64,000 nt of DNA from Clostridium sp. CAG:568 (GCA_000434395.1 FR878803.1:13172-77171), one strand, 5' to 3'. Numbered from the stretch's first letter, positions 4,032-56,865 are shown. Made by a program: numbers and translations. Notes: generated from the letters alone by a model not told the origin.

Positions 4032-4605
4032 TAGATCTCGGCTTTAATTCCTGGAGTTTTTCAAAACAACCGACCATTGTCGATCCTGTGGTTAAGACAT
4101 CATCAAAAAGAATGATGTCTTTTTTTGACAAATCAATTCTTTTTTTGATAATAATCCTATCTTTTACTTTTTTTCTATCTTCCAAGGTTAAATCTTTTTG
4201 AACTGGGCCAGCAGTCTTTCCCAAAATATCCAAATAACGAATATCAGCTGATTCTAATATTCCTATCAAATGATTAAATCCTCTCTTTTGAATCGATTCG
4301 TCAGTTGAAGGAAGCGGAATAACAATTTTATTTAAAGTTAAGAATTTAAATAATAATTCGAAAGGCGTTAAAAAGACGCTTCTCAGTTCATAATCACAGA
4401 TAGTCTTATATTGATATAGCCATTGCATCAAAACATCATCATGATAATAAATAGAAAATATGTTTAACTCACCTATTTTTTCTTTATTAAAATGAAATTT
4501 CCTTTTAGCTAAACAAGAATCACAAATTACAGGTGAAAGAAAAACAGTCAAAGGCGAACTTGGCTCAATTGGATTAAAACACACCTTACAATACTTGTTC
4601 TCCAT
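3994..4605 (-). CDS. comFC: ComF family protein ComFC (phosphoribosyltransferase fold with N-terminal zinc finger)
   Basis: N-terminal CKVC...CDSC zinc finger. C-terminal PRTase motif ILFDDVLTTGSTM. Overlaps the comFA stop by 20 nt. Confidence 0.8.
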   Translation of the reverse strand: MENKYCKVCFNPIEPSSPLTVFLSPVICDSCLAKRKFHFNKEKIGELNIFSIYYHDDVLMQWLYQYKTICDYELRSVFLTPFELLFKFLTLNKIVIPLPSTDESIQKRGFNHLIGILESADIRYLDILGKTAGPVQKDLTLEDRKKVKDRIIIKKRIDLSKKDIILFDDVLTTGSTMVGCFEKLQELKPRSIRGFALMRQHYS

Positions 4606-5749: not shown

Positions 5750-5780
5750 CACTAATATATGTGGATAGATAGTCAAAAGA

Positions 5781-5810
5781 AAATCAAAAAAATCCACCAA
5801 AGGTGGATTT
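5781..5810 (-). terminator. rho-independent terminator after the SMC-like gene
   Basis: Perfect 9-bp stem AAATCCACC/GGTGGATTT with a 3-nt loop, followed on the minus strand by UUUUUUGAUUUUCUUUU. Located in the 21 nt between the SMC-like stop and comFA. Confidence 0.7.
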
Positions 5811-9307: not shown

Positions 9308-9319
9308 ATTTCAATCCTC

Positions 9320-10039
9320 CTAGAAACCGACAGGTTCATTTTTGTCTGCAGTAACGACACCTTCTTTAGACTCTTCTTTGTCTTGAGTGCTTTCATATGT
9401 CTCGCCATTTGAAGAAGAACTATCTTCATTTTGTTCTTCACTACCGGTTAAGAATTTATACAATGCGTTCATCTTGGAAGTAGAAATAATATATTTTATG
9501 GAAGGAAGAATGAAGAATGAATAATTGTTATCATTGAAGGATCCTCTTCCTCTAGCGATAATATTGAAAGAAGCCAAAGTCTTCATAGCTCCGGAAATAG
9601 TTTGTAAAGACAAACGCTTAGAGGCAGTAGATAATCCCAAGTCAGAAAGCTTTTGTCTCAGCTGAGTGGAATCCATAGCCACCTGCAATACATTTGGTTG
9701 TTTTTCTAATGAATCTTCATAGAAATCTCTTAGAGTATATATGACAAATGTAGTGGCAGTATCAACTCTTTCTCTATTCTTATCCAATGCATTTCTTAAG
9801 AAAATGACGCCGCAGTCATCATCTTTTGAAATGACCATATCGATGAAATCCAAATATTCTTCGAATAAAGAATAATGTTTTTCTATAAAAGTGTAATCGT
9901 ACTGAATTTTTTCAAGACCTGTAGTGACATCATAACGTTTTCTAACTATGAAACAATGATATAAAAGATTGTTCATCGTTTCAGAAAATTGGCTCTTTTC
10001 ACCAGTTGAAAGCTTATCGTAATCCTCTTGAAATGACAT
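9320..10039 (-). CDS. MukE/MksE/JetB-like (KITE) subunit
   Basis: 239 aa, a size typical for the MukE/JetB family. Sits between the kleisin-like and SMC-like genes, with 12-nt and 17-nt intergenic gaps. Acidic C-terminal tail. Confidence 0.5.
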   Translation of the reverse strand: MSFQEDYDKLSTGEKSQFSETMNNLLYHCFIVRKRYDVTTGLEKIQYDYTFIEKHYSLFEEYLDFIDMVISKDDDCGVIFLRNALDKNRERVDTATTFVIYTLRDFYEDSLEKQPNVLQVAMDSTQLRQKLSDLGLSTASKRLSLQTISGAMKTLASFNIIARGRGSFNDNNYSFFILPSIKYIISTSKMNALYKFLTGSEEQNEDSSSSNGETYESTQDKEESKEGVVTADKNEPVGF

Positions 10040-10056
10040 AAATAAATGGCTCCTTC

Positions 10057-11529
10057 CTATTTTATCCTCAAGACATATTCCGGAATTTGATAATGTCCGT
10101 TCATCGTCTTATCATCTATTTTCTCCATAGTGAAGAATGTCGTATTGAATTCAGCTCTTACCAAAGCGAGAATCAATAGAATTAAATCATTATCTTCAAC
10201 TAATGAAATCTCACTAGTTTTTATTTCTTTTCTCGAACCGAATGCCCTTCTCATAAACGACTCTACAGCTGCTTCAGAGAATTGACTTACTTCATTGTTC
10301 AAGAAATCATTCATCAAATCGTCGCTTTCATCAGAAATATCAGGAGAAAGTTCCATGGGATCCGGCTCTTCTCTTTGTGTTCTCTTGAAAGGCATGAACA
10401 AAGATCTATCATCAAATATGGAAGCTCTATGATAATCTACAGTATCGACCATCTTAAATAACAATGGGGAATTTTCCTCATTGATGTTAGGATTCTTCTG
10501 CAATTCGCTAGCCATAGAAGAAATTATCTTTTCTAACTTTCCTTTGATAGACTTATCGCTACCCGATAGGTAATTAACCTTCTTTTGAACAGCCTCAGTG
10601 TAATCGGCATTGGCCTTGTCGATTTCATCAAAAGATTTATTCAATCTATTGAATACATCGATTACTTTATTCAAATAAGAAATGACTAAATCTGTAGCTT
10701 TAGAAACTGAAAGAGAAGAAAAAGTAGAATCCATTCTAGCTTGAGAAGCTAGTTTTGCAACGATTCTCCCATCCCTAAGCCACTTATTCAATATTTCGAC
10801 AGTAGGTCTAGAATAAAGACCTAAAGAATCATAAGTCTTCATAGGATGGTAAATAGAATCTCCTACTTCAAATTTATAATCATCAAAATGCTGTTTCAAT
10901 ACTTCGTTAGGATTGAATACATTAGTCAACTTATGATTAAAAACGATGATCGAGTGATGCAAAAGTGTAACTGATAATTCCAATTCATCAGTATTCTTTA
11001 CTGCATTAGCCAAGGATCTAAACATATAGTCATCTTCTTTTTCATCTTCAAGTTTCAATTCAGAATACGTTTGATGAACCAAAGGCATATAAGATGAAAC
11101 ATCGCTAGTCAATTCATCCAACAATTCGAGCATCTTGATAGAGTAGGACGGAAGATAGATATAATCGACACCAGTCTTATAATCCTTGTCTATTTGAAAC
11201 CAACCACAACGAGATAATTTTCTAACTACGTAAGAGAATTTATCGGCAGATAAAGTGTCTTTAACATCGACTTCTTCTTCGACTTCTCTATCATCGTCCT
11301 TATCAGTATCGATAGAAAACAAAGACATGATATCTTGTCCATTTTCTCTCAACGCATCCATATAAGAACTACGAGTGATGGAAGAACGATAAATCTTTAA
11401 GCAATGATACAAGGTGACTAAAGCATAAGCATAAACTGCTTTATACTTTCGGGATAAAGGTGCAAAAAATCCATCCGGAAGACGGTCGAAAAGACGTGCA
11501 TTGTTATTTTCGGTCATTAATTTATCCAA
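10057..11529 (-). CDS. MukF/MksF/JetA-like kleisin subunit
   Basis: 490 aa, first gene of the three-gene set. Acidic linker segments (DKDDDREVEEEVD, PDISDESDD) between predicted helical domains, as in MukF-like kleisins. The annotated start is a TTG 7-8 nt after a GGGGGA RBS; an internal ATG lies 4 codons downstream. Confidence 0.5.
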   Translation of the reverse strand: MDKLMTENNNARLFDRLPDGFFAPLSRKYKAVYAYALVTLYHCLKIYRSSITRSSYMDALRENGQDIMSLFSIDTDKDDDREVEEEVDVKDTLSADKFSYVVRKLSRCGWFQIDKDYKTGVDYIYLPSYSIKMLELLDELTSDVSSYMPLVHQTYSELKLEDEKEDDYMFRSLANAVKNTDELELSVTLLHHSIIVFNHKLTNVFNPNEVLKQHFDDYKFEVGDSIYHPMKTYDSLGLYSRPTVEILNKWLRDGRIVAKLASQARMDSTFSSLSVSKATDLVISYLNKVIDVFNRLNKSFDEIDKANADYTEAVQKKVNYLSGSDKSIKGKLEKIISSMASELQKNPNINEENSPLLFKMVDTVDYHRASIFDDRSLFMPFKRTQREEPDPMELSPDISDESDDLMNDFLNNEVSQFSEAAVESFMRRAFGSRKEIKTSEISLVEDNDLILLILALVRAEFNTTFFTMEKIDDKTMNGHYQIPEYVLRIK

Positions 11530-14709: not shown

Positions 14710-15891
14710 CTAATCAGACCATCTAGCAAACAAAGAAATCGTATGATTGACTATTGTTAAATCAGTGAATTGCCCTGAATTGACATCATCTCTAGATGTG
14801 TACCATCCTTTGAAAGTATGTCCGTTTTTCTTAATCACAGGAAATTCATCCAAATCGACGTAACTTCCCCCATTGACTTTAATAGGATAAATATTTGTCC
14901 CTAGGGCTTTTTCAGTACCATCAGAATCCTTGAAATAAAGAGTTTCACTACTATCAGTCAAAGCGTTGAAATAAACAAAATACTTTTGACTTTCATTTGA
15001 AGAGGAACCTTTGATGGAGAATATCTCAGACCACGCTCCATTCTCTTTCGTATAAACCCCACCAGTGCTGATGTTCAAATAGAAATCACCATCATTACCA
15101 AAGCTTCCTGCAGGTATATCGCTTCCGTATCTCCAAGTAGAACCATCTTTTCCATCTTTAGTCTTTTGAATAAAGAAATAACTCCAAGCACCACTCTCAT
15201 AATTGACTTTAAAAATCCAATCATTCTTATGAGAATTGTTGATCATTTCCAATTCTTCATTATCAGCATTATCGACTGTTACCATATCGATACTAGAAAT
15301 TGAATCACCTTGTTCACCTTTTTTTATAGTAACAACTTTACTGGTATCATTTGTCAATTTAATTGTCACTACAGTGTCGCCAGAATCATCGATATTAGTT
15401 TCAATATCGGCGATTCCAACACCATCAATTCCGTCTTTTCCACCAGGAATTGTAAATTTGTCTGAACTATTATCAGTATAAGTAATAGTTACATTCAAAT
15501 CATTGCTGCCTTCAACTTGATTTATGACTACATCGGATATTCCTTTTCCGTCTTTTGGACCGGGAATTGTCACTATAGTATCATCAATGCTTGAATCAGT
15601 ATAATGAATTGTCAATGTGGTGGATTTATCCTCATTTTCAACTGCATCAACTGAGGCGATTCCAACACCTTCCTTTCCCGAGATTCCAGCTGGGATAGTA
15701 AACTTGGTCGGAGTAGCTTCTTCATCAGTATAAGTGATTGTAACGATGACATTTCCGTTCTCATCACTATCATGAGTGACAGACTTGATCTGCAAAGCTT
15801 GATCAGTATTGAAAAAAGAACACGAAGCTAACGGCATCAATCCAATAGACATAGAAGCACATAACACAGCGATTAATCTTTTCATTTTCAT
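14710..15891 (-). CDS. lipoprotein with three ~35-aa internal repeats and a C-terminal Listeria/Bacteroides (Flg_new) repeat domain
   Basis: Signal peptide plus lipobox MPLASC. Repeats TIPAGISGKEGVGIASVDAVE / TIPGPKDGKGISDVVINQVE / TIPGGKDGIDGVGIADIE. C-terminus NGHTFKGWYTSRDD...LFARW fits the Flg_new repeat. Confidence 0.55.
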   Translation of the reverse strand: MKMKRLIAVLCASMSIGLMPLASCSFFNTDQALQIKSVTHDSDENGNVIVTITYTDEEATPTKFTIPAGISGKEGVGIASVDAVENEDKSTTLTIHYTDSSIDDTIVTIPGPKDGKGISDVVINQVEGSNDLNVTITYTDNSSDKFTIPGGKDGIDGVGIADIETNIDDSGDTVVTIKLTNDTSKVVTIKKGEQGDSISSIDMVTVDNADNEELEMINNSHKNDWIFKVNYESGAWSYFFIQKTKDGKDGSTWRYGSDIPAGSFGNDGDFYLNISTGGVYTKENGAWSEIFSIKGSSSNESQKYFVYFNALTDSSETLYFKDSDGTEKALGTNIYPIKVNGGSYVDLDEFPVIKKNGHTFKGWYTSRDDVNSGQFTDLTIVNHTISLFARWSD

Positions 15892-18365
15892 ATACCTTTA
15901 CCTCCCCTGAGGTCGTCCGATGGACTTTGATCAAATAGATACGGCTTTTCTCCTTCATTCAAATTCAACTTACCATTCGAATAGAAGTAGAACGGATGTG
16001 AGCCTGTGACACAAAGAACAGCTCTAGCTAACGCTGCGGCTATAGAATTAGTATATCCGCCACTGAAATAAGACTTTAACATATCTAGTGTCTCCTTCTT
16101 AGAAAAGATCATATTCGAATCAGAAGATTCAATCTCAACATCCGAACTATTCAATCCTCCACCATAGAAGACGACAGCAGTATTCAAATAGTTCTTATCA
16201 TTTATTTTATACAAATATCCGTTGGATTCAGCTAATTTTTTTAATACATCCTTAACTTTGAAGAAATCATCTATGGACATTCCTTCATAGTCCTTTCCAA
16301 GACTTGCTAACAACAACGATAGTTGCTCATAAATCAATGCTGAAGTCATAATATCATCTATGTCCTTCCAATCATAGAACAAGCTATTTCCAGTAATATT
16401 TAATTTGATGGGATAGCTAGTTCCACCGATTTGATCATATTTACAAGTCATTCCCATGCTTCCTAATAGTCCAATGATAGAAGTAGGAGAGCCGTTATAC
16501 ATCATAGGTCCATTGAAGGATGTCTCGACACCTATTGAGAATACACCTGAATTTGCAAATGATGTATCCTTGACATTTATTACAGCATCGTATTTCTTAG
16601 AGCCGTTAGAATCGATTATATTCTCATCATTATCTAATCCATTTTGGATACTTTCAAATGTCTTTCCTGATGATTGAGAAGACTGACTCAATCCATCCAT
16701 CAAAATCGATTGAACCATATTATCCATATTGAATCCATCATTGGCATCACCTTGGCTGTCATAATAACTAGTGAATTGACTAGTCTTTATACTTCCATCT
16801 GACATCACAATAGAAGCTTCTTTGCTTTTATCTACTTTATTTTCTAAATTACTTCCCACCAATAGCAAGAATTCACCCGAGTCTTTCAAAATAGAATTAT
16901 CTATTGTCAATCCATCAGTGGAAAATGCACGTATTATATTCTTACCATTGGACAAAACACTATTTTGAACAGTGTCATTTTTTCCGCTCACCTCTAGTAC
17001 TGTACCAGTATAAAAGTAATTGTACATTTCATTTTGTGCATCTGAATTTTGGATTCTTATATTATCTAAAGTGATATTGTCTCCATCCAACAATAATCCG
17101 ACATTGTCTTGAGCATAAGCTTCAACAAAAGGATTTGTCGATATATCACCTATTCCTATATAAGGAAGAGGTCCATGGAAATAATCCTTATTAGCATCAG
17201 GAACAATAATTCCATTTCTATTCTTATCAGGAAGTCCATTTCTAGGGAAAGCTAGATTATTCAAATTGATGGTAAATCCATTCCCATAAAAATCTTTTTG
17301 CGCTCTTATTCCAGCAATTAATTTCTTTGAAATAGGTTCAATCAAAGCATCTTTATTAGTCTCATTAAATTCATCGATATAAGTTGTGTGATATGTGGAT
17401 TCAAATTCATAGTATTCATTCGAGAAAGAAAATGAATCAGTGTCAAAGCTATAATTTCCAAATAGTTTGTCAGTCTTAGCATCTGATTTAAGTTCGTTTT
17501 TATATAAAATCCTTTTTTCATTGCTAGGGTCCACTCCACTAGCAACATATACATCTGCTAAAGATCCTAGCGATGTCTGCATAACAGCTGGATGACCAGT
17601 CGAAGATTTGTTGGTGCACATCAACAAATCGTTATAGTTATAAACATTGACACCGTCTTTGACTATATTGAATCTATAAGTATTTGAAACATTATCATCT
17701 AAAGAACTGACAAATGTTATGAACGCATCTCCATGCCCATTAAAGGAAATCTCCTTAGAGCCATCATCGAAAGATATATTGTCCGATTTCGATAAAACCC
17801 TATAGGAACTATGTTCGTCAGTATCTATGACGCATTGAATATCGAGCTTAATCTTTGAAGCGACTGTATGTAATCCATCATATTCCAATGAAGAATAAGA
17901 GGGATCGTATTGACCAAAATCCAAGTATGATTTAGAACTTTGTCCACTTACATTTCCTTTATAATTGACGATGATCACACCTTTATCATAACAATATGCG
18001 TGGAAAGTTTTAGAAACAGTCTTCTTCTCATTAGAACAAGTCACATCTATCTCGCCCTCATTATTGACTTTAAGATTGAAATTATCATCATTTTGCACAA
18101 TCTCTGCCACATCATCCGAGGATGAATTAGATAAAGACCAAATTAAATCATTACCATCAGCTAAAATATTATTAGGATTGCTGACAGGAGTAGCTTCTAA
18201 CTTATATGTGTTATTGGTCTTAAACCCCTCATTTTGCCTATAATTCCAAGATATATCTGAAATATCTACTGCAACAGCACGAGTCAAAATTGTCACTGTC
18301 ACAAAAGAGAGAATACCCAAGAGGAATGGAATGATAAGAAGGATGACTAAAGTTTTTCTTTTCAT
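15888..18365 (-). CDS. secreted or surface protein with a probable right-handed parallel beta-helix region
   Basis: N-terminal signal anchor KTLVILLIIPFLLGILSFVTVTIL. The central region has PbH1-like repeats (NSVLSNGKNIIRAFSTDGLTIDNSILKDSGEFLLLVGSN). 4-nt overlaps with both neighbouring genes. Confidence 0.4.
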   Translation of the reverse strand: MKRKTLVILLIIPFLLGILSFVTVTILTRAVAVDISDISWNYRQNEGFKTNNTYKLEATPVSNPNNILADGNDLIWSLSNSSSDDVAEIVQNDDNFNLKVNNEGEIDVTCSNEKKTVSKTFHAYCYDKGVIIVNYKGNVSGQSSKSYLDFGQYDPSYSSLEYDGLHTVASKIKLDIQCVIDTDEHSSYRVLSKSDNISFDDGSKEISFNGHGDAFITFVSSLDDNVSNTYRFNIVKDGVNVYNYNDLLMCTNKSSTGHPAVMQTSLGSLADVYVASGVDPSNEKRILYKNELKSDAKTDKLFGNYSFDTDSFSFSNEYYEFESTYHTTYIDEFNETNKDALIEPISKKLIAGIRAQKDFYGNGFTINLNNLAFPRNGLPDKNRNGIIVPDANKDYFHGPLPYIGIGDISTNPFVEAYAQDNVGLLLDGDNITLDNIRIQNSDAQNEMYNYFYTGTVLEVSGKNDTVQNSVLSNGKNIIRAFSTDGLTIDNSILKDSGEFLLLVGSNLENKVDKSKEASIVMSDGSIKTSQFTSYYDSQGDANDGFNMDNMVQSILMDGLSQSSQSSGKTFESIQNGLDNDENIIDSNGSKKYDAVINVKDTSFANSGVFSIGVETSFNGPMMYNGSPTSIIGLLGSMGMTCKYDQIGGTSYPIKLNITGNSLFYDWKDIDDIMTSALIYEQLSLLLASLGKDYEGMSIDDFFKVKDVLKKLAESNGYLYKINDKNYLNTAVVFYGGGLNSSDVEIESSDSNMIFSKKETLDMLKSYFSGGYTNSIAAALARAVLCVTGSHPFYFYSNGKLNLNEGEKPYLFDQSPSDDLRGGKGI

Positions 18366-19966
18366 ATGTTTCTAACCTCCATCTTTTTAAAATAGGTAGA
18401 ACTTTTCTTTAAGAAGAAAACCATGACAAGAATAGATAAAATAAAAGTCAAACCTAAATCAAAATACAATATTCCAACTCCTTTCATAATCGTGAAATCA
18501 AATCCGATATCAACCAACACCAACAACATCGGATAAACTATTACACTATATGAAAACAAAGTAGAGAATTTCTTCTTCACCGCACCTAAATCATGCATAT
18601 CCATGATGACACCGCCAAAATTCATTATAACTAATAGCAACAATCCTATAAACAAGAAGAAAAAGAATGACGATAAGGTTATGTTATCGGTCAAATAACA
18701 AGCCAGGACAGTTATAAAATATGAAATAGAAGTCAAAGATAAAGGAATTAATACTTTAGTCAGTGTGATCAATTTATCATTGATTGGCAACAACTTCACA
18801 TTCATCAAATTCTGACCTTCCACAGAAAAAGAAGACGATCCACTTGAATGAATGACTAAAACAAACTCTAAGAGCAATAACATTTGTATCAAAGTCATCA
18901 TGTCTGGAACGAACATCAATAAGACTCTAAGATTCTTTTGGAGAATTGTATTTATAGAAGATAAGACAGCAAAGGATAAGAAAGGCAGCATTATCAACAA
19001 AGCAGTATAAGAAAATGTGTTTCCACTATTTCTAAAGATAAGCATCAATTCTTTCTTAATAAGACCTTTCTTCATATCGCCTATAGACTTGTATTTTCCA
19101 CCGGTTTTATTCTTATTGTGATCATCTCTTTGATTTATAATCGTATAAAAAGTAACAGACAAGAAATATCCGATTACCAAAAACAAGAGAAGAAGACCTA
19201 AAGAGATCAATACACAAGAAAGAATATTTTTAAATTTTATAACGGGAGAAAGAATAGAATAAACAGGAAGAAGGAAAGGGCACATACCATCTATGGCTTT
19301 AATGAACATAGAGGAGAATATATCCTTAAAAGAATAGTTATCTAACACTTTGAGAAAGAGGTTTAAACAAACTTGATATAAATAACAAAGACCTACGACT
19401 ATCAAACTAGCACAAATAAACTGGAGCCATTCTTTATTTTGAAGAAACTTATATATAACTTGTACCAGTACGACTAAAGTAAATATCACACCGATTGAAA
19501 ATAAGGAAATAATGAATGGATATAAAATACAAAAGACGTAATAATAAGGGATAAATTGCCTAAGAGCTCCATAAGTGACAAGGATAGGAAAAGACATTAT
19601 AAAAGACTCTATCACTTGATATAAATAGACATAAATCATCTTAGCTATGATTTTACTATCAGTACTTATGCATAAAGGAGCAAGAATCATAGAATCTTTC
19701 TTGTCGAACATTACTTTTCTAGCTCTGACTAATCCTTCTATTATTCCTAAAATAAACGTAATAAAAATAGAAAAGACTAAGAAATCAAAACTAGAGTCAG
19801 CGGAATAAGCGCTAATCTTTGTATCTAATGAGTAAGTTAAATAAGAAATTAGAGCAATCAAAAGACAAGCTGCTATAGTTTTTAACAATATAGCTATCAA
19901 AGTGGATTTATTGCCACTTCTAGCCTTAGCCAATTTAAATTCCTTATTGACTAACTCAATAATCAT
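18362..19966 (-). CDS. ABC-2 type transporter permease (polytopic membrane protein)
   Basis: 534 aa and almost entirely hydrophobic, with more than 10 predicted TM helices. Overlaps the upstream ABC ATPase stop by 4 nt. Confidence 0.55.
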   Translation of the reverse strand: MIIELVNKEFKLAKARSGNKSTLIAILLKTIAACLLIALISYLTYSLDTKISAYSADSSFDFLVFSIFITFILGIIEGLVRARKVMFDKKDSMILAPLCISTDSKIIAKMIYVYLYQVIESFIMSFPILVTYGALRQFIPYYYVFCILYPFIISLFSIGVIFTLVVLVQVIYKFLQNKEWLQFICASLIVVGLCYLYQVCLNLFLKVLDNYSFKDIFSSMFIKAIDGMCPFLLPVYSILSPVIKFKNILSCVLISLGLLLLFLVIGYFLSVTFYTIINQRDDHNKNKTGGKYKSIGDMKKGLIKKELMLIFRNSGNTFSYTALLIMLPFLSFAVLSSINTILQKNLRVLLMFVPDMMTLIQMLLLLEFVLVIHSSGSSSFSVEGQNLMNVKLLPINDKLITLTKVLIPLSLTSISYFITVLACYLTDNITLSSFFFFLFIGLLLLVIMNFGGVIMDMHDLGAVKKKFSTLFSYSVIVYPMLLVLVDIGFDFTIMKGVGILYFDLGLTFILSILVMVFFLKKSSTYFKKMEVRNI

Positions 19967-20733
19967 TTTTTATCTCCTTTATATATGGAGAAGAACAAAT
20001 TCCTCATATCCGTCTTCAAATAAGGATTACGAGATGTTAAATCAAAGGTAGTTTGAATAACACCGTTATTCAAAAGACACGCCTTTGTAGCCACATCAAA
20101 AATGAAATCTATACTATGTGAAACTATTAAAATTCCTTTCTTAGCTCTCTTAAAGTCGTTTATTACATCGACCAAAGTCTTATAGACCATAATATCCAAT
20201 CCGACTGTAGGCTCATCCAACACCCAAAGATCTGGGTTATGGATGATAGAAGCCATCAATGCCACTTTTTGTTTCATACCATGAGAATACTCACTGATAC
20301 GTCTCTTCATATCAAATTCAGGCATATCAAATTTGATCAGCAACGCCTGATAATTCCTATGGAATACCTCATCGATCATCTGATAAGATGAACCGATGAA
20401 TTTCAAATATTCCTCACCTGTCATCATCTCATAGAGGATAGGTTCAGATGGAACATATCCTAAATTCAATTTAAAATTAATTGGATCTTTATCCAAATCC
20501 AATCCATCCAATTTAACGATTCCGTCATTCTTTGTTTTCAAACCGACAATACAATCCAAGGTAGTTGATTTACCAATACCATTCTTACCAAAAAGACAAT
20601 AGCATTCACCTGGATTAACCATGAATGACAATTCATTTACAACAACACGTTTACCATAGGATTTAACCAATTTCTCGACTTGAAGAATCGGTTCTATTTC
20701 AACTGGATTTTTTTCATTCTTTTCCTCTTCCAT
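19963..20733 (-). CDS. ABC transporter ATP-binding protein
   Basis: Walker A GKNGIGKST, signature SHGMKQKVALMASI, Walker B LWVLDEPTVGLD, H-loop SHS. Confidence 0.8.
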   Translation of the reverse strand: MEEEKNEKNPVEIEPILQVEKLVKSYGKRVVVNELSFMVNPGECYCLFGKNGIGKSTTLDCIVGLKTKNDGIVKLDGLDLDKDPINFKLNLGYVPSEPILYEMMTGEEYLKFIGSSYQMIDEVFHRNYQALLIKFDMPEFDMKRRISEYSHGMKQKVALMASIIHNPDLWVLDEPTVGLDIMVYKTLVDVINDFKRAKKGILIVSHSIDFIFDVATKACLLNNGVIQTTFDLTSRNPYLKTDMRNLFFSIYKGDKK

Positions 20734-20736
20734 AGA

Positions 20737-22137
20737 TCAATCCTCCTTTCTTAAAATACTCTTTATCCAGAGATTAAATGAGTCATCTTCATTTTTAAAA
20801 TAAGACATACTGGAATCACAATTCAAGCAATGAGCCTTAGTTCCAAAGTTATAAACATTCCTACTTCCACATACAGGGCAGACTTCGAATATGTTCTTCA
20901 CTTTAAAGACAAGTCCTAAACTTTTTATTAGATTCATAAGACTAGTTTGATCGTTCTTATAATATGAAGATACAAGAATCTTATTGTAATAATTAGATTT
21001 GTTAGAAGCAGTTATAAAAATAGAATTATCAAATATCTTCTCATCATTCTTCTTTTTAGTTCTAATAGGCTTTAATGATTTTCTATCAACTTTTCTAATC
21101 ATGTGGATTATAGAACTACTCTTCTCACCTTTGTAATCTAAATCAATAATCAACGATAGATCAGCTCCTTCTTTCAATGAGTAAGTCATCTGATCTTTCA
21201 CAAATACGATAGGATTAAATTCTATAAAGCCATCCTTATTCATTTTGAATATTTGTCCATCTAGATCAACACCACATGTGTCCAACAAGTTCAACAGCCT
21301 CAAGACAATAAAGTTGAAATAACTTTTATCCATACAATCAGAAGGATAGTTTTGATTCAAATAATTATCTAAATAAAATTTATAACAGTAAGAATAAAGA
21401 GGGTTATGAATCAAGACATTTGTAGGAATTATGTCTTTCTTAATTTTATAAGGAGAAACAAATTTATAAAATTTGCTAGATTTAATAAACTTAATATATT
21501 TCTTGGCCTTGCCTAGTTTTTCAGTGAAGTCCGGTCTCTTGTCAGGAATATCATAGAATTCTCTATCGATAGGTCCTTTAAATAAAGGTAATTCATTTAA
21601 GAATGAATGAGATGAATAAGTTAAAGAAGGCATTTCATAAGATTCAGCCAGCGAAGAGAAATAATCTTCTTCCATTAAAGAGAAATCATCGATGTCTTCG
21701 CTCAGTAAATCTACTAGTAGACAAATAAACTTGTTTTCATACATAATGACAGAATCTATAGATTCACTAGTATGAACAAATTCAGGGATTTTTTCACCAT
21801 TTTTTTCTTTCCAAAGAGAAATATCTCTCATCGTATCGATAAAACCTTTTTGGTCTAAGCTTGATACTAAATCACTTCTCTTCACCAATCTTTCACTATC
21901 AGTTTTAAAGACAGGCTTTCTAACGATGGATAAGATTCTTTCCAAAACCTTTGTTAAAGAATCTATTTTATCTAAGGCATCTTTGAAATTTAATTCTTCA
22001 TCAGAAGGCAATACATACTGCTTATTCTTTATTAAATCCTTGAGATTCCTAAAATTTGTAGGCTTTGAAAACACGCTCCAAGTCCTGGAGTAGAACGATC
22101 TCAGTACACCAACATTTTTCTTAGTTTTCAAGTCCAT
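20737..22137 (-). CDS. hypothetical protein with a C-terminal C4 zinc ribbon; possible nuclease-like partner of the upstream McrB-like ATPase
   Basis: 466 aa. C-terminus CPVCGSRNVYNFGTKAHCLNCD. Acidic motif EGADLSLIIDLDYKGEK, which could be a PD-(D/E)xK or a Toprim-like DxDxxG motif. Starts 10 nt after the McrB-like gene stop. Confidence 0.35.
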   Translation of the reverse strand: MDLKTKKNVGVLRSFYSRTWSVFSKPTNFRNLKDLIKNKQYVLPSDEELNFKDALDKIDSLTKVLERILSIVRKPVFKTDSERLVKRSDLVSSLDQKGFIDTMRDISLWKEKNGEKIPEFVHTSESIDSVIMYENKFICLLVDLLSEDIDDFSLMEEDYFSSLAESYEMPSLTYSSHSFLNELPLFKGPIDREFYDIPDKRPDFTEKLGKAKKYIKFIKSSKFYKFVSPYKIKKDIIPTNVLIHNPLYSYCYKFYLDNYLNQNYPSDCMDKSYFNFIVLRLLNLLDTCGVDLDGQIFKMNKDGFIEFNPIVFVKDQMTYSLKEGADLSLIIDLDYKGEKSSSIIHMIRKVDRKSLKPIRTKKKNDEKIFDNSIFITASNKSNYYNKILVSSYYKNDQTSLMNLIKSLGLVFKVKNIFEVCPVCGSRNVYNFGTKAHCLNCDSSMSYFKNEDDSFNLWIKSILRKED

Positions 22138-22147
22138 ATAACAAAGA

Positions 22148-23977
22148 TTAAAGCTTTCTCATAAATTTCTTAACTTCACTTCTAGTTAGCATAAAGGAAT
22201 TGACGCCATAAGTATCGTCGATCAAAGACAACAATGAACTCAATCCTTCCTTGACATAATCTTCAAATCTTCCATCCAATTTAGAAATAACTTTTCTAGA
22301 GAACAAGAAATCCAAAGCTTCTTCCTTAGTTCCTCCGAGAGCGACAAATACAGGAACAAAGTTATCGATTTGATTTAAAATACGGTTACCAAATGTGATA
22401 TCGAATGTATCATTTACGAAGTCAGTGATAGTAGAGAATTTTTTATAATCATCTTCACTCATCCTATTCTCCACGGTAGATTTAGCAGTATCAAACTTTT
22501 TGTTTAAATCATCGTAGGAAATCATAATAGGATCAGAATCACCATCGACAACAAAAGGCTCATTTCTTCCATCGAAAGAAATAGTAATAGCACGGTCATA
22601 AACCTTATCAGTAATTGTGTAGGTTGAATCATCTTTATTTGCAGTTCCGATAAACCATGTATTTTCTGGAATATGTAATTCACCATTTATCAAATGCTCA
22701 GGTGCTTCAAACCCATAAGGCAATTGCATAATATGCAAAATCCACTTATCCTTTGGATATTCCAAAATAGAAAGAAAATCAGCAAAATAATATTCGACAC
22801 GAGCAATATTGATTTCATCCAAAACCATAATGTTAACATGATTCGATTGATAGGTCATTTTATATAGTCTTTGAATAAAAGGTGTTTCGTTATAACGCTT
22901 GGAGAAATCGTTATAGTAACCTAGCAATGAAGTTCTATCACGCCATGAAGCCTGAACCGGAGCAAAGAATGAATCTTCTCCGATAAATGTAGAGAAATAA
23001 CGAGCTATTGATGATTTTCCTGTTCCTGACAATCCTTCCAAAATAATCAATCTAGAGACAGAAAGACCAGCTAGGAACGAACGAATCGTTCTTATGTCAA
23101 AATATAATCCTTCTTGTTTAGCTAAATAATTTCTAAATCTATCTGCCATATCCTTCAAAGAAATGCCGTTTTCAGGAATATTTTGAGCAGAAATTGTATC
23201 CAGCGACTCCTTATCTATTGAGCATAATCCAGGAAAAACATATTCTTTGGTTCCAAGAGACACTTCATTTGTAGAACCATTAGCCCCAGCATTGTTAGAA
23301 GAAACACAATTTGTATTTATTTTAGGAAGATCAACACCAAGAATATCAGACAATTCTCCTTGTTCTTCTCTCTTCTTTTCGACTTCTTCGTCTCTTTGTT
23401 CTTCGAAATCATCATATTCTTCGGTTTTAAAGAATCTATAAGGCTTATCGATGTTTCTAAAGTTGATGAAAATAGCACATATTGAAAATATAAACGCTGC
23501 AACAAAGATTCCAATTATCAATGTGAACAATAACACTTCACCTAAAAACTTGAAACTAAGCGTTAGGTTGGTAGCAAAAGTGACTGAATCAGTTCCAATA
23601 GGAAGTTGACAAACAAGTGATATTCCAAGCCATAATGCAGCACAAAGCAAACCGGTTACTATATATGTAATCACCCATTTTCTTGTGTGAATTTTATTGT
23701 CATAGAATTTTGCCATTCTCATTTCAAATATAAATGCTGCAGCAAAAATAAATGCATATATAGCAAACAAATAAATCATAATCCATGCATTGAATGCTGC
23801 ATTTATCATGTTGTTCGATCCAAACAATGATTCAGCCATCATATGTATGGGATTCTTTGAACTGAATATTGAATTCTTAGCATCCAAGCATCCAGCAATA
23901 CAAACAAACAACAAACAATAAAGGAAAACTATTGATATTGCTATCCAATTTTTTCTTGTAATATGAACTTTTTTCAT
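22148..23977 (-). CDS. AAA+ ATPase of the McrB/AAA_5 family fused to an N-terminal 4-5 TM membrane domain
   Basis: N-terminal 190 aa hydrophobic. The cytoplasmic part has Walker A LEGLSGTGKSS, the McrB-type Walker B / sensor VNIMVLDEINIARVEYYFADFLSILE, and FIGTANKDDSTYTITDKVYDRAITISF (McrB-like TxN...D.A.hRRF region). Confidence 0.5.
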   Translation of the reverse strand: MKKVHITRKNWIAISIVFLYCLLFVCIAGCLDAKNSIFSSKNPIHMMAESLFGSNNMINAAFNAWIMIYLFAIYAFIFAAAFIFEMRMAKFYDNKIHTRKWVITYIVTGLLCAALWLGISLVCQLPIGTDSVTFATNLTLSFKFLGEVLLFTLIIGIFVAAFIFSICAIFINFRNIDKPYRFFKTEEYDDFEEQRDEEVEKKREEQGELSDILGVDLPKINTNCVSSNNAGANGSTNEVSLGTKEYVFPGLCSIDKESLDTISAQNIPENGISLKDMADRFRNYLAKQEGLYFDIRTIRSFLAGLSVSRLIILEGLSGTGKSSIARYFSTFIGEDSFFAPVQASWRDRTSLLGYYNDFSKRYNETPFIQRLYKMTYQSNHVNIMVLDEINIARVEYYFADFLSILEYPKDKWILHIMQLPYGFEAPEHLINGELHIPENTWFIGTANKDDSTYTITDKVYDRAITISFDGRNEPFVVDGDSDPIMISYDDLNKKFDTAKSTVENRMSEDDYKKFSTITDFVNDTFDITFGNRILNQIDNFVPVFVALGGTKEEALDFLFSRKVISKLDGRFEDYVKEGLSSLLSLIDDTYGVNSFMLTRSEVKKFMRKL

Positions 23978-24045
23978 GTTTTATATTCTCCTATCTTTAG
24001 ACAAACTTACAAACACTAGCGATTTATTTAGAATTATAATCAAAC

Positions 24046-25047
24046 CTAAGAACCATCACTAGAAACCTCAGATTTAGATTTATCTTCACCCATATCAGTC
24101 TCATCATCAACTTTCTTTTTTTCGATAAGCTTGTCATTTGCAAATAAATACGATTCACCTTTGAACACAAGTTTTTCATATGATGTCTGTTCGACATCTT
24201 CACTGCTGTCATACTCCGCTGAAAATGGTAATGTGTTTAATAAGAAATCAGTTTTTTTAGAAATGGATTTTTGATATTTATCGCTATAGTATTCATACAT
24301 ACCAAAGCAATATAAGACACAGAAAATAGTAATAATTCCAGAATTGCTTTGAAGGAACACTATGAACGCTCCAACTCCTTGAATTCTAAAGTTTGTGTAA
24401 TAACCTACAATGCGATCATAAGAAAGCGATTCTTTATATTGAGATCCGACATCAGAAGCATTATTAGAGTCACCTTGAGTTATGAATGTTTTGGTGCCAT
24501 CATTTTCTTTAATTTCGATAACACGGTGAACAATCACAATATTTTCATCGTTTCTATAAGCTACAACATCATAGAGCTTCACTTGATCAACATCTTTGTA
24601 CTTTTGAATTTGAATAATGTCATACGTGTTGAATTGATTATTCAAATTATTAGTTTTCAAATACGTATTTGCCTCATTTTGTTGACTCATAGATCCAGAA
24701 CCTATGACCACCATCGCCTTATCTCCAATCATAGTCACACCAGATGTAAATCTGTTAACCAAGGAATAAATGAAGAAAGCAGCAACAACTCCAAGAATCA
24801 AATAGGAAATAACCTTTCCGACAATTCTCATTGCTTTTCTTCTCTTGCTTTTTTCAAGTTTGGTTTCTTCAATTACATTGTCTAAGAGATACAAATCATC
24901 TTCGCCATTCTCTATGGTATGAATTTGAGATAAAAAATAATGTCTAAATAAAAATGTAAAAACCAATGAAAATGATAGAAGACAAACTATAGTTACAATC
25001 AAAGAAATAATTTCTAGTGTTTGCATTAATATATCCCTAAGCGGCAA
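24046..25047 (-). CDS. SipW-like (ER/archaeal-type, S26B) signal peptidase I with a C-terminal extension
   Basis: Nucleophile box VVIGSGSMSQ, His box IVHRVIEI (a Ser/His dyad rather than Ser/Lys), GDNN-type box ITQGDSNNASD. The catalytic domain is flanked by TM segments. Confidence 0.65.
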   Translation of the reverse strand: MPLRDILMQTLEIISLIVTIVCLLSFSLVFTFLFRHYFLSQIHTIENGEDDLYLLDNVIEETKLEKSKRRKAMRIVGKVISYLILGVVAAFFIYSLVNRFTSGVTMIGDKAMVVIGSGSMSQQNEANTYLKTNNLNNQFNTYDIIQIQKYKDVDQVKLYDVVAYRNDENIVIVHRVIEIKENDGTKTFITQGDSNNASDVGSQYKESLSYDRIVGYYTNFRIQGVGAFIVFLQSNSGIITIFCVLYCFGMYEYYSDKYQKSISKKTDFLLNTLPFSAEYDSSEDVEQTSYEKLVFKGESYLFANDKLIEKKKVDDETDMGEDKSKSEVSSDGS

Positions 25048-25192
25048 TTTATTTTAACATAATGGAAATATATATAAATAGGTTATTACTTATTCCTTAT
25101 TAATGTATGGGATTTAAAATACTCATTGATATAATTTTATTAAATAAGAATTAAAATTATGAGGGTGATAATAGATTCTTGAAAATAGTGAT

Positions 25193-26125
25193 ATGATTTC
25201 AAATATGAATAAATATCAGATAAGCAAAAGCCCTACTTTAGAGAGATTGAATTTAGGAAACTCAATAGAAGGGTTGAAGAATAAAGAAAGTGGACAAAGA
25301 ATTTGGGAAATTGATTTTTTACGTGGCTTTTTCTTCTTCGGAGTTATTCTCTATCATTTTGCTTGGGACTTTACTTTCTTTCCAACTCTTTTCTCCAACT
25401 GGTACGAGATGTCTTCAATTTATGTCGGCCTAAATAGCTTGTCTAGAATTTGTAACGAAATTCTAAGAAAAGACTATATGATATATTTTGTAAATTTCTT
25501 TTCTGGTGGGTTCTTATTTATAACTGGTGTATCGTGTTCTTTGTCACATTCCAATTTATTAAGGTCTATAAAAATTTCATTAGTTGCTTTATTAATTACT
25601 TTAGTAACATATCTAGGTTCAATTACAACAGGTGATGATATGACAATCATATTCGGCATCCTACATTGTATGGGTCTATCATTATTAATTTATTCCATAT
25701 TTGAACTGATATGCAAATACATAAAAATCAAGATATCACCTTGGGTTCTATTAATAATTGGACTGGGAATGACTGGATATGGAATGTATATAGAATATGC
25801 AACAGTTTATAGAGTCTATTCGACCGCTATGTTAACCCCATCAATTTTTATGAAAGTAGTATTGGGATTTGCCTATACATACAACGATGACTTCGGTCTT
25901 TTACCGAATATGGGGAAAATATTAGTCGGTATTGCAATTGGAAAATGGCTATATGATGGTAAGAGAGGCAAAAAATCCGTCTTACCAAAGTTAGATGGAA
26001 AATGGAATAAACCTGTTTGCTTAATTGGAAGACATACATTCTTAGTCTATATTATTCATCAACCTATAATTTGGATTGTTGTGATTTCGATTTTATTTGC
26101 TCTCGGTTATAGAATAAGTATTTGA
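25193..26125 (+). CDS. DUF1624 / HGSNAT-like acyltransferase-family polytopic membrane protein
   Basis: Motif WEIDFLRGFFFFGVILYHFAWDF plus about 9 more TM segments. Confidence 0.55.
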   Translation: MISNMNKYQISKSPTLERLNLGNSIEGLKNKESGQRIWEIDFLRGFFFFGVILYHFAWDFTFFPTLFSNWYEMSSIYVGLNSLSRICNEILRKDYMIYFVNFFSGGFLFITGVSCSLSHSNLLRSIKISLVALLITLVTYLGSITTGDDMTIIFGILHCMGLSLLIYSIFELICKYIKIKISPWVLLIIGLGMTGYGMYIEYATVYRVYSTAMLTPSIFMKVVLGFAYTYNDDFGLLPNMGKILVGIAIGKWLYDGKRGKKSVLPKLDGKWNKPVCLIGRHTFLVYIIHQPIIWIVVISILFALGYRISI

Positions 26126-26195
26126 TAAATAAGATACAATCTAGATACTATCTATATATAATAAATGAAATTTTTCGAACGAAGAGGAAAAAGGT

Positions 26196-27794
26196 ATGGC
26201 ATTTGAAAACACTGTATGGGGAAGAATCGCACTAATTAGTACGCGTCATCACGGAGTAGCTTTGAGATTTAGAGGAAAAGAGTTTTCCTATGATTATTTG
26301 AAAGATCAAGTTGATAAATATGCATCTCGTCTCTATAACCTAGGTATAAGAAAGGATGATGTAGTTTGCATTGCTGCTCCTAATATTCCAAGCTCAATCT
26401 TTGCAATGTATGCTGTGAATAGTATTGGTGCAATAAATTTTATAGTTCATCCTTTAATCCCTGCTAAAGCTTTGGAAGAAGATTTAAAAAAGACCAAAGC
26501 AAAATTATTACTTGTATTAGACCAACGATACTCAATTTACAAAGGTATTAAACAATGCCCTATTTATACAATAAGTCCAAAGAATGAATTAAGTCCAATC
26601 GAAGATTTCTTCTATCCAATAGCCTATGCATCAAAACTAAAAGGAAGCAAAGGCCATGATTTAACCTCAGTTCCTTTCACAAAAGAGCCAATCGAAAGGA
26701 ACACTGATGAATATAAACCCTCTTTCTATTTACAAAGTGGTGGAACAACAGGAAAAAATAAAATCGTCGTATTAAATGATAGAGCAGTAAACTATCAAGG
26801 AGAAAATGTAGCTTGGATCTTAGGTGATCAATATAGGTATTGCAAAGGATCTGGAATGCTTGGGTTCTTGCCTATGTTCCATGGCTTTGGTTTAGCAATG
26901 GGTGTTCACGCACCTTTGACCAACTATGCAACCTCAGACTTAATGGCTACATATAATGAGAAAGAAATAGGAAAGCTTATTAAGGCTAGAAAACTTCGAT
27001 ATTTAATAGTAGTTCCTTATTTAGCTAAAAGAATGCTAAAAGGAAAAACATTAAATGATCCTAGCGTCTCAAATCTAACCCATGCGTTCATCGGTGCAGA
27101 TAAGACTAACCCGACAGTATTTACTGAATTTGATTCCATCATGGAAAAGAACAATTCAAAATGTAGATTATTGGAAGGTTATGGTTTAACTGAAACAGTC
27201 ACAGTGGTTGTAGTAAATAGAACTTTTGATAGAAAACCCGGCTCCGTCGGTAAGCCATTCCCAGATGTCAAACTTAAAGTGATTGACGAAAATGGTAACA
27301 CATTAAGCACAAATCAAAGCGGTCAAATTTGTATTTCAGCCCCTTGCTTAGCATTAGGTTATTTAAACGACAAAGAAGCAACTGATAAAACCTTTGTAAC
27401 TGATGAAAATGGAATTAGATGGGTTTTAACAGGCGACGAAGGTTATATCGATGAGGATGGATTCTTATTCATCAAAGGAAGAATTAAAGATATGTTCAAA
27501 ATCGCTGGATTCAATATATTCCCAGCCGATATAGAAGACATGACCAATAAGATTGAAGGTGTTGAAAATTGTGCTGCTGTATATATAGATAACCCCAATC
27601 ATCCATATGTACACTTGTTCATAAAGTCAGATTCTAAAAATATTGACACCAGTGAATTAGTAAAAAGAGTAAGAAGAATTTTGTCTGATGAATTGATCAA
27701 ATACGCAGTTCCTGAAAAGATAACAGTCATCGACAATTTGCCTCTTACAAATGTAGGAAAAATCGATAAGAAGAAATTAATTGAACTAGACTAA
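26196..27794 (+). CDS. AMP-dependent synthetase/ligase (fatty-acyl-CoA synthetase-like)
   Basis: AMP-binding motif YLQSGGTTGKNK, GYGLTE, TGDEGYIDEDGFLFIKGRIKD, terminal GKIDKKKL. RBS AGAGGAAAAAGG upstream of the ATG. Confidence 0.8.
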   Translation: MAFENTVWGRIALISTRHHGVALRFRGKEFSYDYLKDQVDKYASRLYNLGIRKDDVVCIAAPNIPSSIFAMYAVNSIGAINFIVHPLIPAKALEEDLKKTKAKLLLVLDQRYSIYKGIKQCPIYTISPKNELSPIEDFFYPIAYASKLKGSKGHDLTSVPFTKEPIERNTDEYKPSFYLQSGGTTGKNKIVVLNDRAVNYQGENVAWILGDQYRYCKGSGMLGFLPMFHGFGLAMGVHAPLTNYATSDLMATYNEKEIGKLIKARKLRYLIVVPYLAKRMLKGKTLNDPSVSNLTHAFIGADKTNPTVFTEFDSIMEKNNSKCRLLEGYGLTETVTVVVVNRTFDRKPGSVGKPFPDVKLKVIDENGNTLSTNQSGQICISAPCLALGYLNDKEATDKTFVTDENGIRWVLTGDEGYIDEDGFLFIKGRIKDMFKIAGFNIFPADIEDMTNKIEGVENCAAVYIDNPNHPYVHLFIKSDSKNIDTSELVKRVRRILSDELIKYAVPEKITVIDNLPLTNVGKIDKKKLIELD

Positions 27795-49447: not shown

Positions 49448-49524
49448 TGGTGCCGACAAGTGGATTCGAACCACCAACCCTTCGCTTACGAAGCGACTGC
49501 TCTACCCTTAAGAGCTATGCCGGC
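49448..49524 (-). tRNA. tRNA-Thr (anticodon CGU)
   Basis: 77 nt cloverleaf: acceptor GCCGGCA/TGTCGGC, D-stem GCTC/GAGC, anticodon loop TTCGTAA, T-loop TTCGAAT, encoded CCA. Confidence 0.8.
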
Positions 49525-56657: not shown

Positions 56658-56688
56658 TCGAGTGCAAAATAAGTACCGGCATATACAT

Positions 56689-56772: not shown

Positions 56773-56776
56773 TGAT

Positions 56777-56851: not shown

Positions 56852-56865
56852 TTTGTTTTTGTTAT

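Follow-up and report, generated by a model that had tools for sequence, protein, structure and literature searches.

What kind of system is encoded by a row of genes that joins a signal peptidase, a restriction-type nucleoside triphosphatase (NTPase) with its partner, an exporter and surface proteins? The question is raised by positions 14710-25047 of a 64,000-nucleotide (nt) stretch of Clostridium sp. CAG:568 (GCA_000434395.1 FR878803.1:13172-77171), in the following called the window, from whose first letter all coordinates are counted. With moderate confidence we read this row as a conserved cell-envelope assembly module of uncultured gut Bacilli and not as a restriction or defence system; for any single mechanistic step our confidence is much lower than for the reading as a whole. 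The module itself is real, widely conserved and essentially uncharacterised, and its composition of peptidase, membrane NTPase, exporter and surface proteins points to the cell envelope. An initial annotation of the same DNA had proposed a surface-structure assembly or secretion module with an 825- and a 988-amino-acid (aa) protein as candidate cargo. An envelope-type module is indeed present, but the cargo is not the one proposed.

Seven genes in one row

Calling of open reading frames (ORFs) gave seven minus-strand ORFs in one row between 14710 and 25047. They are listed here from upstream to downstream, together with the gap before and the gene behind them:

25048-25192, no strand: short intergenic gap of 145 nt, the apparent site of the loss of genes of the G-F-[A/S]-x-W family described below
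24046-25047, minus strand: SipW/archaeal-type (Ser-His) signal peptidase I, 333 aa if started at TTG, 326 aa with the likelier start at ATG 25026
22148-23977, minus strand: membrane-anchored McrB-like AAA+ NTPase, 609 aa
20737-22137, minus strand: McrC-like partner, 466 aa
19963-20733, minus strand: ATP-binding cassette (ABC) transporter ATPase of the DrrA/GldA-like subfamily, 256 aa
18362-19966, minus strand: permease with a fused double ABC-2-like membrane domain, 534 aa, about 12 membrane helices
15888-18365, minus strand: type-II-anchored surface protein with immunoglobulin (Ig)-like domains and a beta-helix, 825 aa
14710-15891, minus strand: lipoprotein with a Flg_new domain, 393 aa
11718-14684, minus strand: Big_2-VanZ membrane protein, 988 aa, outside the module

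Counted in this order the gaps between the seven ORFs are +68, +10, +3, -4, -4 and -4 nt, which agrees with the spacing of -4 to +68 nt and the three 4-nt overlaps given in the initial annotation. Its count of nine genes has to be corrected to seven for this span (the annotation itself named eight proteins), and the 988-aa gene, which it had placed inside, lies outside with its ORF 25 nt beyond that of the lipoprotein. Judged by the spacing, transcription of the seven genes as a single unit is plausible. Scans for consensus promoters and terminators returned as many sites as expected from shuffled sequence and were hence uninformative, and a search of the window with Rfam gave only tRNAs, none of them inside the cluster. 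Proteins identical to those of the window are also encoded on the human-gut metagenome contig ULIT01002038.1 and in several further gut samples.

Conservation of the gene order in related genomes

More than 4,000 full-length homologues of the NTPase were found, and from at least 590 species genomes that encode a relative of it (one genome per species) the best 80 loci were compared. These 80 come from metagenome-assembled genomes labelled Bacilli, Mollicutes or Acholeplasmatales bacterium, Candidatus Onthovivens or Enteromonas, or Staphylococcus sp. CAG:324, which we take to represent the GTDB order RF39 and its neighbours. Order and strand are the same nearly throughout: by tblastn the partner was found in 80 loci, the peptidase and the ABC ATPase in 74 each, the permease in 71, the beta-helix protein in 67 and the lipoprotein in 63, with the missing genes mostly falling at contig ends. 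The peptidase lies directly upstream of the NTPase in 74/80 loci, and the median intergenic gaps in the relatives are 4 nt or less. When 1,057 ORFs were clustered all against all, eight families occurred in at least eight loci, namely the seven of the window and the G-F-[A/S]-x-W family, which is named here after the motif in its signal.

Outside the module nothing comparable was seen. A Pfam census of 148 flanking ORFs gave 99 families, none of which occurred in more than five ORFs, and the genes flanking the module in the window, JetABC included, were matched in 0/80 loci. The NTPases of the related species are only 38-66% identical to that of the window, and the divergence of each module gene tracks that of the NTPase (Spearman 0.57-0.81). 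No relatives of the NTPase were found in 2.9 million viral contigs. Since the gene order is fixed, the flanks are not conserved and the divergence is correlated, the genes form a co-inherited functional module and are neither a mobile island nor a chance row. The initial annotation had named as a possible outcome that these genes are never co-localised elsewhere; the recurrence of seven families in order decisively speaks for the opposite.

The notion that there is no functional unit at all, and that unrelated housekeeping genes stayed adjacent in a young or seldom rearranged lineage, draws on the origin of every examined locus from a single group of related, reduced genomes. We regard it as hardly credible. 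Seven genes, often nine or more, keep their order at 38-66% NTPase identity while the flanks do not; start and stop codons overlap; and the NTPase remains paired with its partner in distant lineages and coiled-coil relatives as well.

An McrBC-like pair without nuclease chemistry

Hydropathy divides the NTPase into four N-terminal membrane helices (residues 1-175), a linker of about 30 acidic residues and an AAA+ core. The core shows weak matches to AAA_5 and McrB, with the NCBIfam McrB model reaching 8.7e-06, far under its cut-off, and together with the four helices it bears out the earlier description as a membrane McrB-like ATPase. The Walker A motif GLSGTGKSS and the Walker B motif VLDE are invariant in 80 sequences. 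In the sensor region G-T-A-N-K-D-D-S-T both N447 and D449 are found in 80/80 sequences, followed at position 450 by D in 70 and E in 10. Collinearity with E. coli McrB extends over 173 residues at a weak E of 0.23, and this is the sole genuine PDB sequence match; a profile search of the PDB with the NTPase family gave no match at E <=0.01. No DNA-binding or modified-base-reading domain was found at the N-terminus, where residues 1-175 are the membrane helices, and no match to FtsB/DivIC was obtained in Pfam.

The partner of the window has no Pfam match itself, but DUF2357, the McrC N-terminal domain, was detected in 25/45 orthologues (best E 2.1e-11). A helical N-terminal half of the DUF2357 type is followed by a beta-rich middle domain and by a C-terminal C4 zinc ribbon whose four Cys are invariant, so that the name zinc-ribbon partner given before was well chosen. 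Among the orthologues no acidic or Lys residue of the middle domain is conserved, i.e., there are no conserved PD-(D/E)xK catalytic residues, and a Foldseek search of the PDB with the partner model yielded no significant match and no nuclease. NTPase and partner are therefore an McrBC-like pair from which the nuclease chemistry is gone. In the model the partner is a helical bundle without a long coiled coil. None of the eight recurrent families is a nuclease, and there is no HEPN protein among the conserved neighbours.

Such a pair might still belong to an anti-phage or abortive-infection system, that is, a membrane-bound type IV restriction variant of the CoCoNuT/CoCoPALM clade that senses or acts on invading nucleic acid, with the other genes as effectors or accessory functions. 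The NTPase matches the PADLOC candidate profile PDC-M26A; it also falls into the NxD clade of McrB proteins, which carries NxD instead of NxxD, usually followed by D or E, and which was predicted to be defensive (Bell et al., 2024, PMC11090510); and JetABC genes adjoin the cluster in the window. However, the PDC-M26A alignment covers the AAA+ core only (residues 278-409 against profile positions 303-433 of 724), the PDC-M26B profile has no match in the partner of the window or in 45 orthologues, and beyond the NTPase and generic ABC matches no module protein was matched in PADLOC. In CoCoNuT systems the loss of the McrC nuclease is always paired with a HEPN or another encoded nuclease (Bell et al., 2024, PMC11090510), whereas here the partner lacks conserved nuclease residues and no nuclease accompanies it. 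The fixed synteny and the correlated divergence at 38-66% NTPase identity are unlike mobile defence islands, the viral contigs are devoid of the system, the JetABC adjacency is not conserved outside the closest relatives, and envelope or secretory proteins make up five of the seven. Taken together, we consider a defence function improbable.

The signal peptidase and the G-F-[A/S]-x-W family

The peptidase passes the cut-off of TIGR02228 (archaeal/endoplasmic reticulum (ER)-type signal peptidase I; 56.6 bits, cut-off 51.85). Against the Bacillus SipW equivalog it scores 55.9, far under the cut-off of 190, and it is therefore not an orthologue of B. subtilis SipW. Across 72 orthologues, conservation reaches at least 90% for the Ser (SGSM), the His (HRV) and the GD.N..D motif. 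There are three hydrophobic helices; one of them, additional and N-terminal, precedes a conserved cytoplasmic loop, and the protein ends in a C-terminal helix and a tail of 85 residues. On the source contig the protein was called with 326 aa, and the start MQTLEII... fits the consensus of the orthologues, so that ATG 25026 is more likely the start than TTG 25047. The gene is predicted to encode an intact SipW/archaeal-type enzyme, in accordance with the ER-type Ser/His peptidase named in the initial annotation. A 178-aa ORF antisense in the peptidase gene (24349-24885, plus strand) is of low complexity, is unsupported and is almost certainly no gene.

Directly upstream of the peptidase and on the same strand, 68/80 loci carry genes of the G-F-[A/S]-x-W family, at a median gap of about 17 nt. 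They occur as one to seven tandem paralogues, usually two, of about 250 aa each. All share a private signal that consists of a Lys-rich start, about 17 hydrophobic residues and then G (100%), F (77%), A/S (98%), x, W/F (97%) and V/I, and a C-terminal motif, F-x-W-G-x-x-F-x-G-x-N-P-x-x-Y-Y, is conserved in the family as well. A further protein with the same signal is encoded straight after the lipoprotein gene in at least 19/61 loci. Gly at position -3 and Ala or Ser at position -1 fit the signal-peptidase rule, with cleavage expected after G-F-A. The position of the genes and the motif suggest that these proteins are likely the dedicated substrates of the peptidase; that they are fibre subunits is our guess.

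Searched against the PDB, the profile of the family gave a borderline match to the archaeal pilin 8gi2 (E 0.022), with Pilin_N at 0.06 and no TasA. Homology to camelysin/TasA was considered and is ruled out by hhalign, Pfam and NCBIfam, and the resemblance to these proteins seems to lie in the signal and not in the fold.

Some loci depart from the common scheme. In L057 (3019-6236 and 19094-19750) the module is preceded at 4-5 kb by genes for two camelysin/TasA-like proteins (Peptidase_M73 above cut-off) with the signal G-T-T-F-A-W-F-S-D. Beside these genes lies what may be a second peptidase, of S24/S26-like type (weak match), and a G-F-A-N-W protein follows the lipoprotein, so two private-signal systems coexist in this one locus. 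Two Acholeplasmatales-labelled loci, L081 (8507-21616) and L085 (8551-14528), have the signal variant [T/S/C]-[F/Y]-A-x-[F/Y]. There the order is rearranged, with the lipoprotein directly after the partner and the variant-signal proteins behind it; in L081 one of these proteins has 772 aa, and the ABC, permease and beta-helix genes are located further downstream.

Absence of the family from the window

By tblastn, hidden Markov model (HMM) and regular expression, no member of the family was found in any ORF of at least 60 aa in the 64-kb window, and the distance from the peptidase ORF to a divergently oriented acyltransferase gene is only 145 nt. The closest relatives L087, L088 and L089, whose NTPases are 58-66% identical to that of the window, have one or two copies each (HMM 1e-35 to 1e-47). 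In L088 the outer flanks are as in the window on both sides, and two G-F-[A/S]-x-W genes lie between acyltransferase and peptidase. Because the closest relatives keep the family while the window is without it, the window copy appears to be a derived form in which the seven core genes are intact, the adjacent cargo genes were deleted and an unrelated Big_2-VanZ gene was inserted downstream. The earlier remark that no dedicated substrates are present is thus true of the window, yet misleading, since the relatives carry a private-signal family beside the peptidase.

The initial annotation had taken the 825-aa and the 988-aa protein as candidates for the dedicated cargo that the SipW-type peptidase processes. 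Both have one N-terminal hydrophobic helix, the sequence A-V-A follows this helix in the 825-aa protein of the window, and no other substrate is encoded at the locus in the window species. Nevertheless both are poor candidates, because the relatives carry a family with an invariant G-F-[A/S] site beside the peptidase. In 64 sequences of the 825-aa family the N-terminal helix is highly conserved (K-K-K-x-L-x-I-L-L-x-x-P-F, with P-F invariant), and A-V-A is not: position -1 is mostly D/E (29/64) and position -3 is T, L, Q or M. With a conserved helix and an unconserved site the 825-aa protein makes a poor SipW substrate; its N-terminus would rather fit a retained anchor contacting a membrane partner than a cleaved signal. 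The signal anchor of the initial annotation is supported in this way, its cargo is not. Furthermore, in L088 the beta-helix gene is cut down to 179 aa while peptidase and G-F-A-x-W genes stay.

The 988-aa protein is a Big_2-VanZ fusion as described before (Big_2 1.3e-10, VanZ 1.5e-09). By tblastn it was matched in 2/80 loci, both times on the opposite strand, and its gene is absent in the syntenic relative L088, where JetA comes after the lipoprotein. It is a lineage-specific neighbour outside the conserved module and neither a member nor its cargo, although the 25-nt gap means that it may be co-transcribed. Processing of these two large proteins as dedicated cargo is in our view very unlikely.

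ABC transporter, beta-helix protein and lipoprotein

The ABC ATPase is matched by PF00005 (9.9e-26) and by TIGR01188 drrA (1e-39) and GldA (2.8e-38), the latter two under their equivalog cut-offs. Hydropathy predicts about 12 membrane helices for the permease. Weak ABC-2 matches were obtained for part of its orthologues (ABC2_membrane_4 in 8/33, ABC_tran_2 in 6/33) and a weak 12TM_1 match in one relative's permease, the protein of the window itself having none; a PDB sequence search gave no match, NosY included. What had been annotated as an ABC ATPase with a 534-aa ABC-2 permease thus holds for the ATPase, the size and the helices, and the ABC-2 label has to be used with reserve.

The model of the 825-aa protein (predicted local distance difference test 85, predicted template modelling score 0.89) shows an N-terminal helix, two Ig-like beta-sandwiches and a right-handed parallel beta-helix. 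The nearest folds to this beta-helix are alginate lyases, capsule depolymerases, AlgG and VexL, i.e., it is of the polysaccharide lyase/depolymerase/NosD type. In L088 the shortened gene (15574-16113) retains the N-terminal helix and the first Ig domain, 40% identical to residues 1-146. As the remainder of the module is intact there, at least one species can do without the beta-helix part.

The lipoprotein has the lipobox LASC, beta repeats of about 33 aa with short Gly-X-Y runs and a GDFY...W motif. Its C-terminal InlB B-repeat (Flg_new) domain was found in 32/32 orthologues (best 1.8e-23), and the profile of the family matches the InlB B-repeat structure 2y5p at 4e-5. Here the repeat lipoprotein with Flg_new of the initial annotation was recovered unchanged.

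Distant relatives of the NTPase-partner pair

Of 1.84 billion cluster representatives searched, 8,565 matched the profile of the NTPase, 1,075 of them at E <=1e-30. Among these are relatives of 700-870 aa whose N-terminal 300-450 residues are long coiled coils and which share the same G-T-A-N-[K/R]-D-[D/E]-S-T motif (P0299 and others). Behind one of these lies a DUF2357 partner that is homologous to the one in the module (HMM 1.8e-30). The coiled-coil relatives are thus the NxD systems with coiled coils of Bell et al. Other distant relatives are multi-helix membrane forms that keep the NTPase-partner pair (one partner HMM 1.6e-62) without peptidase, ABC transporter and beta-helix protein.

Surface-polysaccharide genes lie within 10 kb of the distant membrane pairs in 5/5 contigs that are long enough, a small sample with no formal background estimate. 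The genes are the following:

L091: Polysacc_synt_2, Bac_transf and a TupA-like gene near the pair
L093: Wzz, CpsD-like, three GT2, Bac_transf and GT4 near the pair, with the pair directly beside Wzz and the CpsD-like kinase in one contig
L094: epimerase and Caps_synth near the pair
L095: TupA-like (ATPgrasp_TupA) genes near the pair
L097: GT1, Bac_transf and GH114 directly upstream of the pair

With neighbours of the capsule, exopolysaccharide or teichuronopeptide type, these loci point the NTPase-partner pair towards envelope polymers.

The same observations could be explained by a unit for export and processing of a surface glycan, to which the private-signal proteins are incidental. The transporter would export a polysaccharide, the beta-helix enzyme would trim or epimerise it and the McrBC-like ring would be a co-polymerase-like regulator (cf. 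Wzc, CpsCD). This is in line with the nearest folds of the beta-helix, with an ATPase of the DrrA/GldA group and the weak ABC-2 matches of the permease, with the capsule and exopolysaccharide loci in all five informative contigs, and with a window that keeps the core without G-F-A-x-W genes. However, there is no glycosyltransferase or priming enzyme in the module or recurrently beside it in the 80 close loci, and no catalytic residues can be assigned in the beta-helix protein. The conserved dedicated peptidase and the G-F-A-x-W genes on both sides of the module in most species would also be left unexplained. We therefore doubt this explanation, while granting it more credit than any of the other alternatives.

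Two further loci, L066 (6159-12539, UBA6449) and L074 (7643-12498, UBA6380), keep NTPase and partner without the peptidase, ABC and beta-helix genes. In both a secreted collagen-like (Gly-X-Y) protein is encoded upstream of the pair, and L066 has a 393-aa membrane protein in between. In L092 (1129-2757) an AMP-binding gene lies directly upstream of a distant membrane NTPase, which may be coincidence.

Comparison with described systems

The system closest to the module is CoCoPALM, a McrBC subgroup tied to signal peptidases and pilus assembly that was named in two sentences, with the details deferred to a 'forthcoming publication' (Bell et al., 2024, PMC11090510). No fuller account was found after that paper, nor in those of its supplements that were searched. 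Common features are an NxD[D/E] NTPase, an adjacent DUF2357 partner, a membrane-spanning N-terminus of the NTPase and the association with a signal peptidase (74/80 loci). CoCoPALM NTPases, however, have a FtsB-like single membrane helix and a coiled coil, and coiled coils are present on both proteins (PMC11090510), whereas the NTPase of the module has four membrane helices and a short acidic linker without FtsB-like helix or coiled coil. The ABC transporter, the beta-helix protein, the lipoprotein and the G-F-A-x-W family are unmentioned by Bell et al. The module thus shares the NxD, partner and peptidase traits of CoCoPALM, differs in the FtsB/coiled-coil one and is not a confirmed member. 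That it is not a described system, as the initial annotation put it, is nearly right, but NTPase and partner belong to the NxD branch of McrBC and CoCoPALM has been briefly named. From CoCoNuT systems the module differs in having neither a partner nuclease nor an accompanying one.

With classical McrBC (E. coli, T. gammatolerans) the pair has in common the McrB AAA+ core with Walker A, Walker B and N-x-(x)-D as well as the adjacent DUF2357 partner. In contrast to it, the module has a membrane anchor in place of the DNA-binding domain, unconserved PD-(D/E)xK residues, an added zinc ribbon and a location within an envelope operon, and the similarity is very weak (E 0.23). The likeness to PDC-M26 is confined to the AAA+ core matched by the component A profile, and component B is absent. 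A precedent for the recruitment of a McrB-family NTPase to a cell-envelope or cell-cycle task is PcdA of Staphylococcus aureus, which was co-opted for the choice of the division plane (PMC10602043). By its description PcdA is set apart from the module: it carries EVE domains, lacks both a membrane anchor and a McrC-like partner, and belongs to a different branch.

The tapA-sipW-tasA and sipW-calY operons of Bacillus resemble the module in that an ER/archaeal-type peptidase is encoded beside paralogous secreted proteins with a conserved motif ending the signal. This motif is G-F-A-x-W in the relatives of the module and G-T-T-F-A-W-F in the camelysin-like proteins of L057. Unlike in Bacillus, the neighbours in the module are not TasA or camelysin (no Peptidase_M73 match), the peptidase is extended by one more helix at its N-terminus and by a long tail at its C-terminus, and the window is without substrate genes; the Bacillus operons in turn are without NTPase, ABC transporter and beta-helix partner. 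To NosDFY, an ABC transporter with a docked periplasmic beta-helix and the lipoprotein NosL, the likeness is architectural only. The permease of the module has 12 helices and no NosY match, the beta-helix protein is N-terminally anchored and has Ig domains, and there is no link to copper or N2O reductase.

Type IV pilus, Tad and archaeal pilus systems were also considered and rejected, as no PilB, PilC or PilD/PibD families were found in the module by Pfam and NCBIfam scans. A class III signal was rejected as well: the G-F-A motif stands after the hydrophobic stretch and not before it, and the matches to archaeal pilin N-termini are weak.

A possible mode of action

For the envelope assembly module that we favour, the full form from upstream to downstream would comprise one to seven G-F-A-x-W proteins, the peptidase, the McrB-like NTPase, the McrC-like partner, the ABC ATPase, the permease, the Ig/beta-helix protein, the lipoprotein and often one more G-F-A-x-W protein. 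The G-F-A-x-W proteins would be exported by Sec, cut after G-F-[A/S] by the Ser-His peptidase and then build a surface fibre or layer; the G-F-A cut site resembles the TasA/camelysin signal. The McrB-like ring, anchored through four membrane helices per subunit and activated by the McrC-like stalk, could act on the cytoplasmic side as the nucleotide-driven switch or motor of an assembly platform. The ABC transporter might export a non-protein component, or it might, in the manner of NosDFY, pass force on to the anchored beta-helix protein. Together with the lipoprotein, the latter may bind or trim a surface glycan.

A bolder version would make the module a new surface-filament machine. In it the McrB-type GTPase ring and the McrC stalk would take the places of PilB and PilC, the SipW-type peptidase that of the prepilin peptidase and the one to seven G-F-A-x-W paralogues, as polymerising subunits, that of major and minor pilins, with ABC transporter, beta-helix protein and lipoprotein forming the outer-face base or tip. 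This would be a fourth independently evolved route to a pilus, starting from a restriction enzyme. We think such a machine rather unlikely.

Several points weigh against an envelope assembly module. The top profile match of the NTPase in any library is the defence candidate PDC-M26A (4.7e-41), and a defensive role is predicted for the wider NxD clade (PMC11090510). At E up to 1 the G-F-[A/S]-x-W family is matched by neither a Pfam nor a NCBIfam model, and the NCBIfam scan showed no match to the SipW-cognate signal TIGR04088, a model that the library should include. Aligned with camelysin-like proteins by hhalign, the signals alone align, at 4% probability. The link to glycans comes from the beta-helix fold and the distant relatives, and in the near relatives polysaccharide-synthesis genes were not found flanking the module, the flanks being heterogeneous. 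The seven intact genes of the window without the proposed substrates mean either that substrates are encoded elsewhere in the genome or that the core functions independently of them. Finally, the gene order was compared in the best 80 of the at least 590 species genomes.

If the envelope reading is true, a McrBC restriction motor has lost its nuclease, has become anchored in the membrane and now belongs to a fixed envelope operon, which would be a testable case of defence machinery domesticated for cell-surface assembly. Relatives of the NTPase are encoded in at least 590 species genomes, of which the best 80 showed the full operon, and the carriers are abundant uncultured gut Bacilli. The module would offer a first way into the surface biology of these organisms, which are known from metagenomes only. 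G-F-[A/S]-x-W would be a new class of private signal peptide paired with its own peptidase, and detail would be added to the CoCoPALM group, so far only named in the literature. The species of the window, as a natural variant without the presumed cargo genes, is useful for asking what the core does alone.

Genes flanking the module

Directly downstream of the 988-aa gene the window encodes JetA (PF18982, 1.2e-70), JetB (DUF4194) and a JetC-like SMC ATPase (5822-11529, minus strand, with 3994-5800, minus strand). No JetD/Toprim gene follows; the next genes encode a DEAD-box/ComFA-like helicase and a ComFC-like phosphoribosyltransferase. The row looks like a three-gene Wadjet/MksBEF-like set without the nuclease subunit, and it also follows the module in the close relative L088. 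A linkage of the module to Wadjet was rejected, the JetABC adjacency being confined to the closest relatives.

On the other side, a HGSNAT-type membrane acyltransferase and an AMP-binding (acyl/aryl-adenylating) enzyme are encoded divergently upstream of the module (25193-27794, plus strand), as they are in L088. Among the 148 flanking ORFs of the relatives the commonest families are LytTR response regulators and GHKL histidine kinases, with five ORFs each, seen in the flanks of 5/80 loci. Two-component genes occur in other NxD McrBC operons (Bell et al., PMC11090510), and a regulatory link to the module is possible. The tRNAs of the window form a cluster of five at 56582-57040 (plus strand) and a lone gene at 49451-49524 (minus strand), with no further Rfam family reaching its gathering score in the window.

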